Source: a virus (taxonomy: Duplodnaviria; Heunggongvirae; Uroviricota; Caudoviricetes). From it: a stretch of 14,938 nucleotides of DNA. Each line of letters begins with the position of its first letter. The stretch's first letter is position 1. The notes beneath the pieces were generated by a model, which was not told where the DNA came from, searched no databases, and saw nothing but the letters and a program-made list of their open reading frames with translations. The position numbers and the translations under genes were made by a program. The DNA lies in IMG/VR virus record IMGVR_UViG_2690316148_000003. One strand, given 5' to 3'. Of the stretch, positions 708 to 11,215 are shown in pieces.

Positions 708-3614
708 ATGAGTCCATCAGAACTTAGCGACCTGCTTTGGGCGCAGGTTGACAGGGTGGCTCCGCACCTGTTGCCAAACGGCAAGAAAGAGGGGCATGAG
801 TGGGTTGCCGGTAACGTCAACGGTGACAAGGGAAACAGCCTTAAGGTCAACCTTAGCGGTAAGAAAAAATGGGCTGATTTCGCTGAGGGAGACGGCGGTG
901 ACATGCTTGATTTGTGGATGGCATGTCGTGGAATTAACCTGCATCAGGCTATGCAGGAAGCGAAAGCATTTCTCGGTATCAAGGATGACGATCACCATTT
1001 CGATGCCAGACGTGAGAAGAAATTCTCCAGACCTGATCGCAAGAAAATCGCCCACTACGTTACCAGAACAGAATCCCATCTTGAGTACCTGCAATCGCGT
1101 GGCATATCGCCAGAAGTCGTAAAGCGCTACGAGGTTGTCAGCGGCAAGGTGTGGAATGGAGAACGAGAACTGGATGCTCTGGTGCTTCCGTACAAACGCG
1201 ATGGTGAGTTGTTGCAGGTCAAGCGAATCAGCACTGAGCGCCCGGACGGGAAGAAAGTCATTATGGCAGAAGGTGATTGCGAACCTTGCCTGTTCGGATG
1301 GCAGGCTCTGGACGCTGGCGTGAGGGCGGTTGTGCTTTGCGAAGGCGAAATTGATTGTATGAGCTATGCGCAATACGGCATCTCGGCGTTATCCGTGCCG
1401 TTTGGTGGCGGGAAAGGCGCTAAGCAACAGTGGATTGAGTTTGAGTATCACAACCTCGACAGGTTTGAGGAAATATTCATCTCGATGGACGTTGATGATG
1501 TTGGTCGTGAAGCCGCAAGGGAAATCGCAAGCCGACTCGGTGAACATCGTTGCCGTCTTGTTACTCTGCCGTACAAAGACATCAACGAATGCCTGATGAA
1601 CGGTGTTACCGAGGATGAAATCTGGCAGTACATCGGCACGGCATCCTACTTCGATCCTGAAGAACTCTACAGCGCGCGCGAGTTTTACCAGGACACTATC
1701 AACGCTTTCTACGGCAAGCAGCAGTATCTGTTTAATCCACCGTGGGAATCTCTGGCAGATAAATTCCAGTTCCGTGAGGCAGAGTTGACGCTGGTCAATG
1801 GTGTGAACGGTCACGGAAAGGCATGCCCACTGAATGAGCCTATTCTTTTAGCTGATGGGACATGGACTACTCACGGGAATGTAAAAATTGGCGATCAGGT
1901 GGCGTCAGTAGACGGCAATCCGTCAACTGTCACTGGGATATTCCCGCAGGGTGTTAGAGATGTTTACCGAGTCACATTTGAAGATGGTCGTTATGTTGAT
2001 TGCGCAGGCGATCACCTATGGGAGGTCACTAGTCGTGGATTCACGAAAGGCGAGAAACGCCGCGTGATAGATACCTTCGGGTTGAAGCGGTTGAGTGAAA
2101 CGAAGAGGCACAAAAATGGCGTTAGGATTCCTGAAATAACTGGTGACTTTGGCGACCACTCAGAGCCATTAGCATGGGTTATCGGCTCCCTTCTCGGGGA
2201 TGGTAGTCTTAGCAATGGGAGCGTGAAGTTTTCAAACGTCGAGCCATACATGATCGAGCGTATGAAGGCTGAACTGCCTGATTACAACTTCTCTGGAGAT
2301 GGTAAGGACTGGCTGATATCAACGGCGCGTGGTCAGGTAAATCCACTCATGGAGACCCTGCGAGGTTATGGACTAATGGGGTGCACAGCAAAAAACAAAT
2401 TCATCCCTCGTGTGTTTTTTTCCGCAAATAAATCAACGCGTATAGGCATGCTGTGTGGTCTGCTTGAAACGGATGGGTATGTCGAGAAGGATGGAACGCT
2501 TGTTTTTTCCTCAGCAAGTGAAAAACTGCGCAATGGGGTTGTTCAACTGGTTAACTCACTCGGCGGGTCATGCCGGACGCGAGTTAAAACTGGCGTGACA
2601 TACACATACAAGGACGATAAGCGGCATGGGATGGATTCATACGAGGCAAGAATCAGACTGACAAGAGAAATCAGGGAGGCCATCCGTTCACCACGACTCA
2701 ATGGCAGATTAACTGCGCATCGATTCGAGGGCTGTGGGGTATTCGTCAGGAATGTTGAAAAAATCGGCAATGCAGAATGCTTGTGTATTATGGTCGATCA
2801 CCCTCGCCACCTGTATGTAACCAGGGGATATGTGGCGACGCATAACACCGAGGTTGTCGGGCATATGGCACTTGAGGCAATGCGTCAGGGTGTGAAGACG
2901 TGCATCGCGTCACTTGAGCTGAAGCCTGGTATTCTCCTTAAGCGACTTACCCGTCAGGCAACGTGCTGCAAGATGCCGCCAGTGCTGGAAATTGACTCTG
3001 CATTTAAATTTTATGACGAAAGACTTTGGGTGTTTGGCCTGACCGGAACGGCGAAAGCCGACAGGCTGATCGAAATATTCGACTACGCTCGCCGCCGATA
3101 CGGCATCCAGTTATTCATTATCGACAGCCTGATGAAATGCGGCATAGGTGACGATGACTATAACGGGCAGAAAGCGTTTGTTGACTCGATTTGTGACTTC
3201 AAAAACAAAACAAACTCCCACGTCATTCTCGTTACTCACTCCAGAAAAGGAGACAGCGAAGAAAAACCAACCGGGAAAATGGACGTGAAAGGCTCTGGAG
3301 CGATAACAGACCTGACAGACAACCTTTTCATCATCTGGCGTAACAAGGCTCGCGAGAGAGCGTTACAGAGAGTTCAGAGTGGTGAAAAGATGTCAGAGAA
3401 GGACGAACAGCTACTGGCGTCTCCTGCATCTGTTTTGATGCTTGAAAAACAACGTAACGGCGAAGGCTGGGAAGGTGGTGTTCCGTTGTTCCTTGACGAG
3501 CAATCGCACCAGTTCCTGCAACTTGAATCAGGATCGCCATATAGCTACATCGCCAATATGCCGAAATCGGAATATGACGAGGCGTGGCGACAGGAAAACG
3601 TGACGGAGTATTAA
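708..3614 (+). CDS. Bifunctional DNA primase / SF4 (DnaB-like, T7 gp4-type) replicative helicase, interrupted by an intein
   Basis: 968-aa ORF. N-terminal region has Toprim-like acidic motifs (LCEGEIDCMSYA, ISMDVDDVGREA). C-terminal half resembles the T7 gp4 helicase domain: Walker A GVNGHGK...T, then IIDSLMKCG and VTHSRKG-type motifs. In-frame stop at 702-704 fixes the start at 708. Confidence 0.9.
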   Translation: MSPSELSDLLWAQVDRVAPHLLPNGKKEGHEWVAGNVNGDKGNSLKVNLSGKKKWADFAEGDGGDMLDLWMACRGINLHQAMQEAKAFLGIKDDDHHFDARREKKFSRPDRKKIAHYVTRTESHLEYLQSRGISPEVVKRYEVVSGKVWNGERELDALVLPYKRDGELLQVKRISTERPDGKKVIMAEGDCEPCLFGWQALDAGVRAVVLCEGEIDCMSYAQYGISALSVPFGGGKGAKQQWIEFEYHNLDRFEEIFISMDVDDVGREAAREIASRLGEHRCRLVTLPYKDINECLMNGVTEDEIWQYIGTASYFDPEELYSAREFYQDTINAFYGKQQYLFNPPWESLADKFQFREAELTLVNGVNGHGKACPLNEPILLADGTWTTHGNVKIGDQVASVDGNPSTVTGIFPQGVRDVYRVTFEDGRYVDCAGDHLWEVTSRGFTKGEKRRVIDTFGLKRLSETKRHKNGVRIPEITGDFGDHSEPLAWVIGSLLGDGSLSNGSVKFSNVEPYMIERMKAELPDYNFSGDGKDWLISTARGQVNPLMETLRGYGLMGCTAKNKFIPRVFFSANKSTRIGMLCGLLETDGYVEKDGTLVFSSASEKLRNGVVQLVNSLGGSCRTRVKTGVTYTYKDDKRHGMDSYEARIRLTREIREAIRSPRLNGRLTAHRFEGCGVFVRNVEKIGNAECLCIMVDHPRHLYVTRGYVATHNTEVVGHMALEAMRQGVKTCIASLELKPGILLKRLTRQATCCKMPPVLEIDSAFKFYDERLWVFGLTGTAKADRLIEIFDYARRRYGIQLFIIDSLMKCGIGDDDYNGQKAFVDSICDFKNKTNSHVILVTHSRKGDSEEKPTGKMDVKGSGAITDLTDNLFIIWRNKARERALQRVQSGEKMSEKDEQLLASPASVLMLEKQRNGEGWEGGVPLFLDEQSHQFLQLESGSPYSYIANMPKSEYDEAWRQENVTEY
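1821..2846 (+). mobile_element. Intein (Hint domain plus LAGLIDADG homing-endonuclease domain) inserted in the helicase Walker A motif
   Basis: Insert lies between GVNGHGK and TEVVGHMALEAM. It begins ACPLNEPILLADG (Ala codon 1821-1823, Cys codon 1824-1826) and ends YVATHN (Asn codon 2844-2846), followed by Thr at +1. Two LAGLIDADG-type motifs: LAWVIGSLLGDGSL (about 2169-2210) and IGMLCGLLETDGYV (about 2442-2483). Block-B-like GRYVDCAGDHLW and block-F-like ECLCIMVDHPRHLY. N-terminal boundary uncertain by one codon (1821 or 1824). Confidence 0.7.
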
Positions 3615-4324: not shown

Positions 4325-4621
4325 ATGAGCAAAGTATCACGAGGAATGAAAATATCGCTTATTTTCATCCTTAATCCGCATCGTATCTTTTTGGCTTCAG
4401 CAGTATGGCTGTCATATTTTGTTTATTGGTTAGCAGATAAATTGGATGATTTTGCGAAATGGCTTGAGAATTTTGCGAATGCGAGGTTTGAGTCATGGCC
4501 GCTTATCGGAGAGAAGATGTCTGACGAATTAAACCGGTATTACGCGGATAAGCGCAAGGAGAAGAGCAGGAGGGCAAGTGAAGCAATTATTCCTGCTTCG
4601 CAACGAAGCAATCAGAAATAA
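4325..4621 (+). CDS. Hypothetical protein with hydrophobic N-terminal segment (about 98 aa)
   Basis: AAGGAG at 4314-4319, 5 nt upstream of ATG 4325 (track ORF starts at GTG 4319). 3' end overlaps the ninB start by about 44 nt. Confidence 0.5.
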   Translation: MSKVSRGMKISLIFILNPHRIFLASAVWLSYFVYWLADKLDDFAKWLENFANARFESWPLIGEKMSDELNRYYADKRKEKSRRASEAIIPASQRSNQK

Positions 4622-5024
4622 CGCCATAGACGCCATTCTCTCACTACCCATCGACGACAAGTCACCCCACGAAGTCCACGTTAGAGAACCCAAACGCAGC
4701 AAAGCGCAGAATGACCGTATGTGGCCGATGCTGAACGATGTTTCGCGTCAGGTGCTATGGCATGGTCAACGGCTGGCGCCGGAAGACTGGAAAGACCTGT
4801 TCACTGCCCTGTGGCTTAAGACCAAAAAACTGGAGCAACGAAGTGCGCCTGGTATCGGCGGTGGCGTTGTCATGCTTGGCGTGCGTACCAGCAAAATGCG
4901 AAAGGCCAGCATGACTGAGCTTATCGAAATCATGTTCTGGTTCGGCTCAGAGCGCAACGTGCGGTGGAGTGATAACTCCCGGCGAGAGTATGAATGGTCA
5001 CAACGAACAGGGAGGGCGGCATGA
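4578..5024 (+). CDS. ninB: NinB (Orf-family recombination protein)
   Basis: 148-aa product resembles phage lambda NinB as recalled ([32 protein letters not shown]-terminal GRAA). GTG start at 4578. Confidence 0.85.
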
Positions 5025-5238: not shown

Positions 5239-5547
5239 TTAAACGAAGCGGATCTGGAGTTTTTTTCCAGTAGCGCGGGCGAATTTTTTTAGGGTGGCAA
5301 ATGATGGGCCGCTGATACCTGATGCGAGATTACTTTCCATTCTGGTGATCGCGGTCGCTTTTGTTCCCATTCGCTCGGCAACTTCAGCCTGAGTTAAGCC
5401 AGCTTCTTTGCGTGCTGCCAGCATTTCATCAAGCAGTGCGAATTCGTCAGCGATAGCGTCGTATTCTGCTTTAAAAGCCGGGTCTTCCATCCATTTGGCT
5501 GCCATTTCGTCGTGTGTCATGGTGGGGAGAGTGCGTTTACCAGTCAT
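5239..5547 (-). CDS. HTH (XRE-type) antitoxin / addiction-module antidote protein, HigA-like
   Basis: 102-aa product has a C-terminal HTH (GLTQAEVAERMGTKATAITRMES). Strong SD GAAGGAGG upstream on the minus strand. Overlaps the upstream toxin ORF by 11 nt. Confidence 0.8.
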   Translation of the reverse strand: MTGKRTLPTMTHDEMAAKWMEDPAFKAEYDAIADEFALLDEMLAARKEAGLTQAEVAERMGTKATAITRMESNLASGISGPSFATLKKFARATGKKLQIRFV

Positions 5548-5866
5548 GCTTAACCTCCTTCATTCTGGTTTCAGCTTTCTTGCGTTCGGCTGGCGGTGTT
5601 TTCTGCGTTTTCTTTACAAAACTATGCAGCATGATGATGCGTTTCCCTGTCAGAGTGCAGTAAAAAACACGCGCGATCCCATCGTTGCCTTTAATTCTGA
5701 GTTCGAAAAGTCCGTCACCAAAGGCGCTGGTGTGAGGTTCTCCGAGATTGCTGCCATATATCTTCATACGTTCAACGAGATGTTGGTATCGGGCACGCAT
5801 ACTCAATGGAAGCCGATCGACTTCCAGCCTTACATCTTCACTGTAGTATTCGATAGTGTAGTTCAT
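5537..5866 (-). CDS. RelE/ParE-superfamily toxin (Gp49-like / HigB-like addiction-module killer protein)
   Basis: About 110 aa from the internal Met (MNYTIEYYSEDVRLEVDRLP...RVFYCTLTGKRIIMLHSFVKKTQKTPPAERKKAE). Toxin-first gene order, as in HigB/HigA modules. Start uncertain: ATG at 5866 or 5878; the track's longer N-terminal extension is unlikely. Confidence 0.75.
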   Translation of the reverse strand: MNYTIEYYSEDVRLEVDRLPLSMRARYQHLVERMKIYGSNLGEPHTSAFGDGLFELRIKGNDGIARVFYCTLTGKRIIMLHSFVKKTQKTPPAERKKAETRMKEVKHDW

Positions 5867-5876
5867 AGGTATCAAC

Positions 5877-5892
5877 ATAACAAAATTGTTAT
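5877..5892. promoter_or_regulatory. Inverted repeat ATAACAA-AA-TTGTTAT at the toxin start; candidate operator for antitoxin autoregulation
   Basis: 7-bp perfect arms with 2-bp spacer, seen directly. It overlaps the alternative toxin start codon and a TATAAC -10-like hexamer on the minus strand. Confidence 0.4.
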
Positions 5893-6001
5893 ATGCATTC
5901 AAGGCCTGTAGTTGACGACAACACATATCCGGGGCTATATTCCTCACGCGCCAGCAAAATCTGGCGTCGGGATTGGAACCCCGGATATCGAAACGGTGCA
6001 T

Positions 6002-8326: not shown

Positions 8327-8511
8327 ACGCCACAATTCAAACGATACCAGAGCTTCTTATCCAGACACGAGGCAATCAGACCGAAGTGGCGAGGATGCTT
8401 TCCTGCGCAAGAGGAACAGTGCTCAAGTACAACCGAGACAGCAAAGGCGAGCGTCACGTAATAGTTAACGGCGTCCTGATGGTCAAACAGGGCAAGAGGG
8501 GAAGACGATGA
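8323..8511 (+). CDS. ninH: NinH-like protein
   Basis: 62 aa. GNQTEVARMLSCARGTVLKY...VIVNGVLMV resembles lambda NinH. Located immediately upstream of Q, as in lambda. Confidence 0.65.
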   Translation: MNATIQTIPELLIQTRGNQTEVARMLSCARGTVLKYNRDSKGERHVIVNGVLMVKQGKRGRR

Positions 8512-9131
8512 GACTCGAAAGCGTAGCTAAATTTCATTCGCCAAAAAGCCCGATGATGAGCGACTCACCACGGGCTACGGCTTCTGACTCTCTTTCCGGT
8601 ACTGATGTGATGGCTGCTATGGGGATGGCGCAATCACAAGCCGGATTCGGAATGGCTGCATTTTGCGGTAAGCATGAACTCAGCCAGAACGACAAACAAA
8701 AGGCTATCAACTATCTGATGCAATTTGCACACAAGGTATCGGGGAAATACCGTGGTGTGGCAAAGCTCGAAGGAAATACTAAGGCAAAGGTACTGCAAGT
8801 GCTCGCAACATTCGCTTATGCGGATTATTGCCGTAGTGCCGCGACGCCGGGCGCAAGATGCAGAGATTGCCACGGAACAGGTCTGGCAGTTGATATAGCC
8901 AAAACAGAGCAGTGGGGGAGAGTTGTCGAGAAAGAGTGCGGAAGATGCAAAGGTGTCGGCTATTCAAGGATGCCAGCAAGTGCAGCATATCGCGCTGTAA
9001 CGATGCTAATCCCAAACCTCACCCAACCCACATGGTCACGCACTGTTAAGCCGCTGTATGACGCTCTGGTGGTGCAATGCCACAAAGAAGAGTCAATCGC
9101 AGACAACATTTTGAATGCGGTCACACGTTAG
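8508..9131 (+). CDS. Q: Late-gene antiterminator Q (lambda-type)
   Basis: 207-aa product appears essentially identical to phage lambda Q as recalled (MRLESVAKFHSPKSPMMSDSPRATASDSLSG...CRDCHGTG...CGRCKGVGYSRMP...NAVTR). Confidence 0.9.
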   Translation: MRLESVAKFHSPKSPMMSDSPRATASDSLSGTDVMAAMGMAQSQAGFGMAAFCGKHELSQNDKQKAINYLMQFAHKVSGKYRGVAKLEGNTKAKVLQVLATFAYADYCRSAATPGARCRDCHGTGLAVDIAKTEQWGRVVEKECGRCKGVGYSRMPASAAYRAVTMLIPNLTQPTWSRTVKPLYDALVVQCHKEESIADNILNAVTR

Positions 9132-9391: not shown

Positions 9392-9466
9392 GGGTCAGTC
9401 GTATAAAGGTCATTACGGAAGGCTGTTAACCTTCTTATCGTTGTTCGAGTCCACGCTGTCCCGCCA
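9392..9466 (+). tRNA. tRNA-like gene, anticodon GUU (Asn), with mismatches in acceptor, D and T stems; possibly degenerate
   Basis: Hand-folded cloverleaf: acceptor GGGTCAG/CTGTCCC (one T-T mismatch), perfect anticodon stem GAAGG/CCTTC with loop CTGTTAA, T-loop TTCGAGT, discriminator G, encoded CCA. Confidence 0.45.
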
Positions 9467-9471
9467 AATAT

Positions 9472-9547
9472 GCTGGTTTAGCTCTAATGGTAGAGCAGTC
9501 GCCTTGTAAGCGAATGGGTAGCGGTTCAAGTCCGTTAACCAGCACCA
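9472..9547 (+). tRNA. tRNA, anticodon UGU (Thr)
   Basis: Hand-folded cloverleaf: perfect 7-bp acceptor stem GCTGGTT/AACCAGC, D-stem GCTC/GAGC, anticodon loop CTTGTAA, T-arm AGCGG-TTCAAGT-CCGTT, discriminator A, encoded CCA. 76 nt. Confidence 0.75.
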
Positions 9548-9663
9548 TAACTGAGCCGTAGCCACTGGCTATCCTGAATTCATCAGTGACAGTTACGCTG
9601 CGGCCTTCTTTTCCCCTTCCCAATATAAGAACTACGCCATCCGTTATTTGCGGAGGTGAGGCT

Positions 9664-9879
9664 ATGAAATCCATGGACAAAATTTCAACGGGCATTGCCT
9701 ACGGCACCTCCGCCGGCAGTGCCGGCTACTGGTTTTTGCAGTGGTTGGATCAGGTCAGTCCGTCACAGTGGGCTGCGATTGGTGTGCTGGGAAGTCTGCT
9801 TCTGGGGCTTCTGACTTATCTGACAAATCTGTATTTCAAAATAAGAGAAGATAAGCGTAAGGCTGCGAGAGGTGAATAA
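9664..9879 (+). CDS. S: Class II holin (phage 21 S-type pinholin) with dual start
   Basis: [30 protein letters not shown]...[15 protein letters not shown] closely matches phage 21 S holin as recalled. Two in-frame starts (Met1 and Met4). RBS GGAGGTGAGG upstream; the track ORF begins further upstream at 9586. Confidence 0.85.
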
Positions 9880-10864: not shown

Positions 10865-11215
10865 ATGCCATCACTAATCCCACGTGCCTGCCGTAAGCGT
10901 GGATGTGCAGGTACAACCACAGACAGTTCGGGTTACTGCGATAAACATCGCGGTGAAGGCTGGGTGCAGCACCAGCGCGGACTGAGCCGCCACCAGCGTG
11001 GCTATGGCTCAAAATGGACGGTGATTCGTGCCCGTATTCTGAAGCGCGATAAAGGTCTGTGTCAGTTGTGTCTGCGTGTCGGTGTGGTGAGCGAGGCGAA
11101 AACCGTCGACCACATCATCCCGAAAGCGCATGGCGGAACAGACGCAGACAGCAACCTGCAGAGTCTGTGCTGGCCCTGCCATAAAGCGAAAACAGCGCGC
11201 GAACGAATCCGGTGA
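10865..11215 (+). CDS. HNH endonuclease (packaging-associated, HK97 gp74-like)
   Basis: 116 aa with Cys pairs and an HNH motif (VDHIIPKAHGG...NLQSLCWPCHKAKT). Positioned directly upstream of the small terminase. Confidence 0.85.
   Translation: MPSLIPRACRKRGCAGTTTDSSGYCDKHRGEGWVQHQRGLSRHQRGYGSKWTVIRARILKRDKGLCQLCLRVGVVSEAKTVDHIIPKAHGGTDADSNLQSLCWPCHKAKTARERIR

Follow-up and report, generated by a model that had tools for sequence, protein, structure and literature searches.

We found that positions 1821–2846 of a 14,938-nucleotide stretch of tailed-phage DNA (Caudoviricetes; IMG/VR record IMGVR_UViG_2690316148_000003), referred to here as the window, very probably encode a class 3 intein of full length, within which a LAGLIDADG homing endonuclease is nested. 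The intein lies between the Lys and Thr of the Walker A motif (GxxGxGK/T; the slash marks the insertion site here and below) of a lambdoid-prophage Toprim primase/superfamily 4 (SF4) helicase, which is the 'P' protein of Shiga toxin (Stx) phages. The host gene is an intact open reading frame (ORF) of 968 amino acids (708–3614, forward strand, as are all of the parts of this gene described below) in which translation and Pfam searches identified a Toprim primase and a probable DnaB/gp4-like helicase, and an identical 968-amino acid protein has been recorded from Shigella sonnei. It should be noted that the intein is already known, having been reported in closely related Stx phages and belonging to a well-described class. 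What we add here are precise boundaries, a residue map that assigns the intein explicitly to class 3, and an account of the selection acting on the endonuclease and of the decoupled divergence of the intein and its exteins.

The 371-amino acid N-extein (708–1820) comprises the Toprim primase domain followed by the beginning of the helicase domain, and ends with the first part of the Walker A motif, GVNGHGK, while the C-extein (2847–3614; 255 amino acids plus the stop) provides the remainder of the SF4 helicase domain, with the two being contiguous in intein-less alleles. Between them is the intein of 342 amino acids, Ala1–Asn342 (1821–2846; protein residues 372–713), and across the two junctions the protein reads ...LTLVNGVNGHGK/ACPLNEPILLADG...LYVTRGYVATHN/TEVVGHMALEAM. 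The first residue after the intein, Thr+1 (2847–2849), is both the Walker A Thr and the predicted +1 splicing nucleophile. In Pfam searches the Toprim_2 match (residues 209–296; 45.9 bits) was clearly above the cut-off, and in the unedited 968-amino acid protein the C-terminus matched no more than part of a P-loop helicase domain. Removal of the 342 residues in silico restored the P-loop GVNGHGKT and brought AAA_25 above its gathering score (27.9 bits with a cut-off of 27), and a DnaB_C match (23.8 bits with a cut-off of 27) then spanned profile positions 16–253, which is nearly the full profile. The source names of homologues include 'bifunctional DNA primase/helicase' and 'Twinkle protein'. 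The G+C content of the intein is 49.0% compared to 49.5–51.8% for the exteins, and that of the third codon positions 48% compared to 56–58%, though these differences are mild and not diagnostic on their own.

The boundaries of the intein are fixed by naturally-occurring alleles which lack it, referred to here as empty alleles. When phage genomes were compared with the window gene using megablast, nine records gave whole-gene matches at 98–99% identity (Min27, phi24B, several Stx2a phages and the Klebsiella phage phiKp_30), while two-piece matches with 64–65% coverage were obtained for Sf101, mEp043, APC_JM3.2 and Stx2_EH2086 (~98% identical) and for epsilon34 and its relatives (~87% identical). 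The empty alleles of Sf101, mEp043 and epsilon34 read GVNGHGK/TEVVGH and have a clean 1026-bp gap compared to the window. A protein alignment of 13 sequences (the window, three insert-bearing and nine insert-less homologues) also contained one contiguous gap, A372–N713. As the empty alleles pass directly from Lys to Thr, the Ala must be inside the insert, and residue 1 of the intein is Ala and not Cys.

These results bear out an earlier note on this DNA which proposed that an insert at 1821–2846 splits the Walker A motif and should appear as a single contiguous gap in alignments with intein-less homologues. The position it gave was correct, and its estimate of about 341 amino acids becomes 342 codons, in frame and matched exactly by the gap in the empty alleles. 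It had also placed the end of the insert correctly, at YVATHN followed by Thr, but the first residue needs to be corrected to Ala (GCA, 1821–1823), and Cys2, which follows it, would not act as the nucleophile at the splice junction. The possibility it raised, that homologues might keep the segment as a conserved and non-excised domain, was not borne out as ~115 of the 120 best-scoring 90% clusters are proteins of 624–629 amino acids without the insert. The product sizes it expected (~70 and ~38 kDa) agree with the masses we calculated for the intein (38.0 kDa) and for the exteins once ligated (71.1 kDa), with the precursor at 109.1 kDa.

Class 3 inteins have no nucleophile at residue 1, carry the triplet Trp(B:12)–Cys(F:4)–Thr(G:5) (WCT) and either Ser or Thr at the +1 position, and begin splicing from the Cys in block F (Tori et al. 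2010, PMC2807308; PMC3196547; PMC5222942). Each of these characteristics that can be judged from sequence was found in the window intein, in which the key residues are Ala1, His65, Trp67, Cys322, Thr340, His341, Asn342 and Thr+1. Block A (ACPLNEPILLADG, 1821–1859) starts with Ala1, where the junction is fixed by the empty alleles, followed by Cys2 (1824–1826), and block B (GDHLWEV, 2007–2027) contains His65 (B:10, 2013–2015) and Trp67 (B:12, 2019–2021). Block F (ECLCIMVDHPRHLYVTRG, 2775–2828) includes Cys322 (F:4, 2784–2786), the predicted initiating nucleophile, which forms a C-x-C motif with Cys320 (2778–2780), and block G (YVATHN, 2829–2846) includes Thr340 (G:5, 2838–2840), His341 and Asn342 (2844–2846).

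The best matches amongst solved structures in a phmmer search with the splicing domain were both class 3 inteins, from Mycobacterium chimaera (Mch) DnaB1 (6RIX, E = 2.9e-11) and M. smegmatis (Msm) DnaBi1 (6BS8, E = 9e-8). In these alignments Cys322 corresponds to Cys124 of Mch DnaB1 and Cys118 of Msm DnaBi1, HLW is placed on HQW (His65 and Trp67 in both) and THN on THN. The triplet Trp67, Cys322 and Thr340 therefore aligns with W67, C124 and T143 of Mch DnaB1 and with W67, C118 and T137 of Msm DnaBi1, for which residue roles have been described (PMC7664689 and PMC6195587).

The same signature was seen in a much larger set of relatives. A word-indexed homologue search with the intein alone had returned 6 proteins, and this was replaced by a full-length query and by an exhaustive HMMER search, which covered 1.84 billion cluster representatives and identified 2,806 relatives at E ≤ 1e-30. 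We counted alignment columns for the 149 nearest 50%-cluster representatives, with several domain fragments per protein and gapped columns included in the counts. Upstream of the intein, positions −2 and −1 are G (136/139) and K (137/146). Residue 1 is Ala in 117 of 147 sequences, with Ser in only three and neither Cys nor Thr in any. His was found at B:10 in all 185 sequences and Trp at B:12 in 183 of 185, with Cys at F:4 (182/182), Thr at G:5 (178/181) and Asn at G:7 (181/181) similarly placed, and Thr or Ser followed the intein in 180 of 181. A Cys at F:2, the position of Cys320, was present in 46 of 182 relatives. The host proteins we sampled included DnaB, PhoH and SNF2-type helicases, and four phage relatives, 31–50% identical, occupy the same GK/[TS] site in four different helicases.

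The two LAGLIDADG-type motifs described in the earlier note are both present, at intein residues 117–130 (LAWVIGSLLGDGSL, 2169–2210) and 208–221 (IGMLCGLLETDGYV, 2442–2483), and lie within a homing-endonuclease domain of approximately intein residues 106–300 (2136–2720) supported by Pfam, phmmer, Foldseek and the ratio of non-synonymous to synonymous substitution rates (dN/dS). The Hint and LAGLIDADG similarities that it anticipated from profile searches were likewise both recovered using Pfam, NCBIfam and PDB sequences. The Pfam LAGLIDADG_3 match scored 34.1 bits with a cut-off of 22.5, NCBIfam matches were to intein-containing proteins in every case, and in the phmmer comparison with PDB sequences the N- and C-terminal parts matched DnaB inteins and the middle matched the PI-SceI endonuclease core. 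The predicted catalytic acidic residue of motif 1 (SLLGDGSL), Asp127 (2199–2201), is retained in 153 of 180 relatives and that of motif 2 (GLLETDGYV), Asp218 (2472–2474), in 181 of 186, and both motifs and both residues are conserved in our alignment of all four intein-bearing alleles. A PI-SceI-like active-site Lys (K191) was rejected as a conserved residue, as this column is variable amongst the relatives.

An AlphaFold2 (AF2) model of the intein plus five flanking residues on each side, produced from an alignment of nine sequences, had a predicted local distance difference test score (pLDDT) of 83 and a predicted template modelling score (pTM) of 0.83. When this model was used in Foldseek searches, PI-SceI chains were the top matches (E = 3.7e-17, TM 0.72–0.74) with both domains covered, followed by TliVMA, PhoVMA and PI-PfuI, and matches were also found to I-DmoI and I-OnuI. 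The splicing domain was best matched by the inteins of Mch DnaB1 and Msm DnaBi1 (TMt 0.77–0.86). The predicted structure is that of a HINT fold with a LAGLIDADG alpha/beta fold placed between HINT blocks B and F.

The intein is patchily distributed, with 79 of the 296 complete Escherichia coli genomes carrying the gene also having the intein, always with at least 99% identity, and the intein-bearing allele is present in phages deposited as complete genomes (phi24B, Min27, phiKp_30 and several Stx2a phages). Intein-bearing alleles differ at 0–7 of 1026 sites in the intein and at 4–17 of 1113 sites in the N-extein, and Min27 and Stx2_16002 have identical inteins with 15 N-extein differences. In more distant alleles, from Cronobacter and two metagenomic contigs, the inteins are 82–88% identical and the exteins 60–86%, and using the Nei-Gojobori method the intein has a synonymous divergence (dS) of 0.6–1.4 where that of the exteins is saturated, although it should be noted that dS is near saturation in these distant comparisons. 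By the same method, dN/dS is 0.06–0.13 for the endonuclease domain and 0.05–0.17 for the HINT parts. The endonuclease domain is under purifying selection and the intein is less diverged than the gene which hosts it, both of which are consistent with homing. Such a pattern is compatible with the transfer of the element between diverged alleles and with selection on its endonuclease, though it does not prove present-day activity.

We predict that the target of the endonuclease is the conserved P-loop coding sequence ...GGTCACGGAAAA/ACGGAGGTTGTC..., which, with the exception of the Thr(+1) wobble position (ACG, or ACT in APC_JM3.2), does not vary over ~18 bp before and 32 bp after the insertion point. 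This holds even for the epsilon34 allele, which is 87% identical. The equivalent sequence in the Sf101 and mEp043 empty alleles is GTGAACGGTCACGGAAAA/ACGGAGGTTGTCGGGCATATGGC. The codons on either side of the intein differ at their wobble positions between intein-bearing and empty alleles, with AAG compared to AAA for the Lys (1818–1820; phiKp30 excepted) and ACC compared to ACG or ACT for the Thr (2847–2849), and these differences may represent a short co-conversion footprint. Synonymous divergence is also uneven within the intein itself, with window dS values for HINT-N and the endonuclease of 0.216 and 0.014 when compared to phiKp30 and of 0.148 and 0.82 when compared to Cronobacter, which suggests that there are recombination breakpoints within the element.

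In the mechanism we propose, the 109-kDa precursor with its interrupted Walker A motif would form no P-loop and should be inactive as an ATPase, as has also been argued for the RadA and DnaB P-loop inteins (PMC6195587). The internal Cys322 (F:4), aided by His65, Trp67 and Thr340, would attack the Lys371–Ala1 (Ala372) peptide bond to produce a thioester branched intermediate on block F, and the N-extein would then be moved from Cys322 to the Thr+1 hydroxyl. Cyclisation of Asn342 would free the 38-kDa intein, and an O–N shift would leave a 71-kDa helicase with an intact GVNGHGKT loop. The endonuclease of the free intein would be expected to cut intein-less alleles at the P-loop coding sequence, with repair from an intein-bearing allele copying the intein into the site when phages co-infect a cell or when a host is polylysogenic. 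Phages with this gene have been isolated as viable although their only helicase has a split P-loop, which strongly implies that splicing takes place in vivo, and the suggestion in the earlier note that replication would depend on splicing can soundly be inferred from the broken Walker A motif.

A number of observations weigh against this interpretation and need to be considered alongside it. The B:7 position is occupied by Ala62 where characterised class 3 inteins have Asp or Thr/Ser, though this position is dispensable in MP-Be, the class 3 intein of the mycobacteriophage Bethlehem DnaB (PMC2807308). Cys2 adjoins the N-terminal scissile bond and is kept in all four primase-helicase alleles, while the 149 nearest relatives have Gln or Leu here and never Cys. 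The Pfam Hom_end_hint match (E = 1.5e-5) has a score of 25.5 bits, which is below the gathering score of 32.1, and the alignment behind the AF2 model was limited to nine sequences. The lower divergence of the intein could partly reflect inter-phage recombination and not endonuclease-driven homing, and in searching the literature we came across no published experiments on its splicing or on DNA cleavage by it. The conservation of Cys2 might alternatively be explained by a class 1 intein which starts at this residue and uses it as the N-terminal nucleophile, with the preceding Ala belonging to the extein, much as the earlier note had written the start as '(A)CPL'. We rejected this on the empty-allele junction, where Lys is followed by Thr and the Ala belongs to the insert, and we consider it scarcely credible given that the product, GHGKAT, would destroy the GK[ST] Walker A motif, that a complete WCT triplet is found together with a residue 1 that is not a nucleophile, and that a Cys at position 2 is seen in none of the relatives. 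Furthermore, phmmer aligns ILLADG at residues 8–13 of the window intein and PI-SceI (Sce VMA), and the Sce VMA-type block A register (VLMADG, residues 8–13) presumably fits only with Ala as residue 1.

It is also very unlikely that the insert is a splicing-dead relic retained as a permanent domain, either in the non-functional helicase of a defective prophage or in a precursor that works without excision. Many Shigella prophages are decayed and the Shigella flexneri gene is found as fragments, with a stop at intein residue ~237 and a restart at ~324, and the one documented inactive class 3-like intein, Arth_1007, is also located in a prophage remnant (PMC3196547). However, Arth_1007 lacks both the B:10 His and the F:4 Cys (PMC3196547), whereas the window ORF is intact and retains all of the residues known to be essential (H65, W67, C322, N342 and T+1). 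The HINT parts have the low dN/dS expected of strong purifying selection, alleles that are 98.8% (amino acid) and 99.3% (nucleotide) identical are found in the genomes of phages isolated as viable, and a P-loop with a 342-residue interruption would not be expected to bind ATP (see PMC6195587). Less easily set aside, though still unlikely in our view, is an intein that splices but has a cleavage-dead endonuclease, so that the patchy distribution results from lambdoid recombination and vertical inheritance instead of active homing. Cleavage is a prediction from sequence, recombination is heavy amongst the lambdoid phages with extein single-nucleotide polymorphisms forming a mosaic across intein-plus and intein-minus alleles, the contrast in dS between HINT-N and the endonuclease in the phiKp30 comparison points to breakpoints, and the near-clonal E. 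coli intein (at least 99% identity) could be one recent lineage. A dead enzyme should nevertheless drift or shrink to a mini-intein, as seen in Msm DnaBi1, whereas both D127 and D218 persist in the four diverged alleles and in the majority of relatives, the dN/dS of the endonuclease is as low as that of the splicing domain, and in alleles with only 60–67% identity the exteins have diverged far more than the intein. We continue to favour a class 3 intein that would both splice and home.

A further possibility, which we consider improbable, is that this intein acts as a conditional switch on prophage replication, with the Cys320/Cys322 C-x-C motif and Cys2 forming a reversible disulfide or metal site that would block splicing under oxidative or zinc stress. 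Such a block has been shown for Msm DnaBi1, which is also a P-loop class 3 intein, and both Cys2 and Cys320–Leu–Cys322 are conserved in all four diverged primase-helicase alleles. In the DNA-damage-induced Stx and lambdoid phages, a switch of this kind would gate the amount of active helicase, and hence genome amplification, post-translationally. We note that Cys2 and the C-x-C motif may have some bearing on the redox or metal control of splicing, for which the C48–C118 disulfide of Msm DnaBi1 can be compared.

The public annotations of this protein are 'toprim domain-containing protein', 'bacteriophage protein' and 'replication protein P', and an intein is mentioned in none of these. The real product would be a 626-amino acid helicase-primase plus a free 38-kDa endonuclease. 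The window intein is a clear case, from the enterobacteria, of a class 3 intein which is full-length and has kept its endonuclease, and intein-plus and intein-minus alleles that are ~98% identical occur naturally in well-studied phages (phi24B, Min27, Sf101 and mEp043). With such alleles and a genetically easy host, this would be a convenient system in which to investigate class 3 splicing and homing between co-resident lambdoid prophages, and could also be used to address whether splicing limits the replication of Stx-type phages. These findings leave current understanding unchanged; class 3 inteins at the P-loops of phage helicases are already textbook examples of the class.

The window covers the early-right and late regions of a lambdoid prophage, with the gene order partial O-like initiator, P-like primase-helicase, NinB, Gp49/HigB-like toxin and helix-turn-helix (HTH) partner, two antirepressors, RusA and the Q antiterminator (8508–9131), followed by tRNA-Asn, tRNA-Thr, holin (9586–9879), lysozyme, Rz, HNH endonuclease, TerS, TerL and portal. 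No stx gene was found in the window. The tRNA-Asn(GTT) (9392–9466) and tRNA-Thr(TGT) (9472–9547) genes between Q and the holin are in the position where Stx phages carry tRNAs and stx. The Gp49/HigB-like toxin (PF05973) and HTH_3 protein are encoded by an overlapping pair of genes on the reverse strand in the nin region (5242–6001) and are probably a toxin–antitoxin module; the closest E. coli prophage has a RelE/ParE–HTH pair at the same place. A free-standing HNH endonuclease (10865–11215), directly upstream of TerS (Terminase_4), TerL and the portal in an HK97-type packaging arrangement, is the second nuclease gene of the window and is unrelated to the intein endonuclease.

The window has an intact ninB (4578–5024), while in E. 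coli FDAARGOS_943, the closest complete genome (gene 99.2% identical), the ninB that follows the helicase gene is split by IS600 (14485–16192 locus) and a second IS600 flanks the early-left region. The Min27 gene (EU311208.1) is 2909 bp long, 2 bp longer than the 2907 bp seen elsewhere, and is annotated as two coding sequences ('P' and 'ORF31 putative DNA primase'), with the extra 2 bp probably being a frameshift or sequencing error in the C-extein. Gene fragments from many S. flexneri assemblies end at intein residue ~237 (...SSASEELR), and 194 contigs have a separate ORF of 274 amino acids with its start at intein residue 324 (MVDHPRHLY...); the S. flexneri gene seems to be disrupted inside the endonuclease domain. 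The Shigella cluster member P0008 (727 amino acids) was rejected as a decayed gene, as it is a partial protein cut at a contig end.

The P-loops of DnaB-type helicases are a recognised hotspot for inteins (PMC4760082), and the window intein has been reported before in related phages. Smith et al. 2012 (PMC3430580) wrote that P, a gene of the Stx phage phi24B, 'carries an intein' in which the HintN domain is intact, and that a S. flexneri prophage orthologue shares 955 of 968 residues, but gave the boundaries as 372–702 and mentioned neither the endonuclease nor the class; as the C-terminus is at residue 713, their boundary is 11 residues short. Shigella prophage primase inteins without an N-terminal nucleophile were also mentioned by Tori et al. 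2010 (PMC2807308). Gene P of phi24B (vB_EcoP_24B) and Min27, and the S. flexneri 'primase' inteins of InBase (ShP-Sfv ... Primase), represent the same gene, site and intein as the window, with the whole gene of phi24B and Min27 98.5–98.6% identical (DNA) and the intein 98.8% identical (protein). The window copy differs from that of phi24B and Min27 in being located in a non-Stx lambdoid prophage. It is also complete, unlike the truncated copies from S. flexneri 2a to which Tori et al. referred.

The MP-Be DnaB intein, which is the class 3 prototype, is also full-length (341 amino acids compared to 342), and both have a non-nucleophilic residue 1, Thr+1 and a phage helicase as host. The key residues are H65, W67, C320, T339 and N341 in MP-Be (PMC2807308) and H65, W67, C322, T340 and N342 in the window, but the MP-Be host is a DnaB-like helicase of an actinobacteriophage and the mechanism has been shown biochemically for MP-Be, whereas we infer it for the window. 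This likeness rests on published residue positions, as no intein was found by tblastn and a motif scan in positions 25000–52000 of the Bethlehem genome (AY500153), in which the annotated DnaB-like gene is only 822 bp, and the crystallised class 3 inteins were used for alignment instead. Of these, Msm DnaBi1 (6BS8) and Mch DnaB1 (6RIX/6RIY) are also found in helicase P-loops, and their catalytic Cys, HxW and THN align exactly with those of the window intein. Both are mini-inteins of 139–145 amino acids that have lost the endonuclease and are hosted by a cellular DnaB, in contrast to the full-length phage intein described here, and Msm DnaBi1 has Asp62 at B:7 and the regulatory Cys48 where the window intein has Ala62, Cys61, Cys2 and Cys320. 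PI-SceI (Sce VMA), TliVMA and PI-PfuI share the combination of HINT and two-motif LAGLIDADG domains with the window intein. PI-SceI is the best whole-chain structural match and motif 2 and its surroundings can be aligned by sequence, though identity is only ~16%, and it is a class 1 intein (Cys1 and Cys+1) of a eukaryotic V-ATPase with an extra DNA-recognition region and 454 amino acids compared to 342.

The Stx2a phage Stx2_EH0505 carries a sister class 3 LAGLIDADG intein (LC616031.1, 2501–3517) of 339 amino acids which is 50% identical to that of the window and is also located after a P-loop GK, with Ala1, ECLCIMV, THN and Thr+1. It lacks Cys2, and its host is a classical DnaB (...AARPGMGK/TELALK...) and not a Toprim–helicase fusion. 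This intein is present in the P-loop of the DnaB-type helicase in 49 records of Stx2a-converting phages other than those that carry the window intein. Two types of Stx-phage replication module each carry a related predicted intein at the equivalent site.

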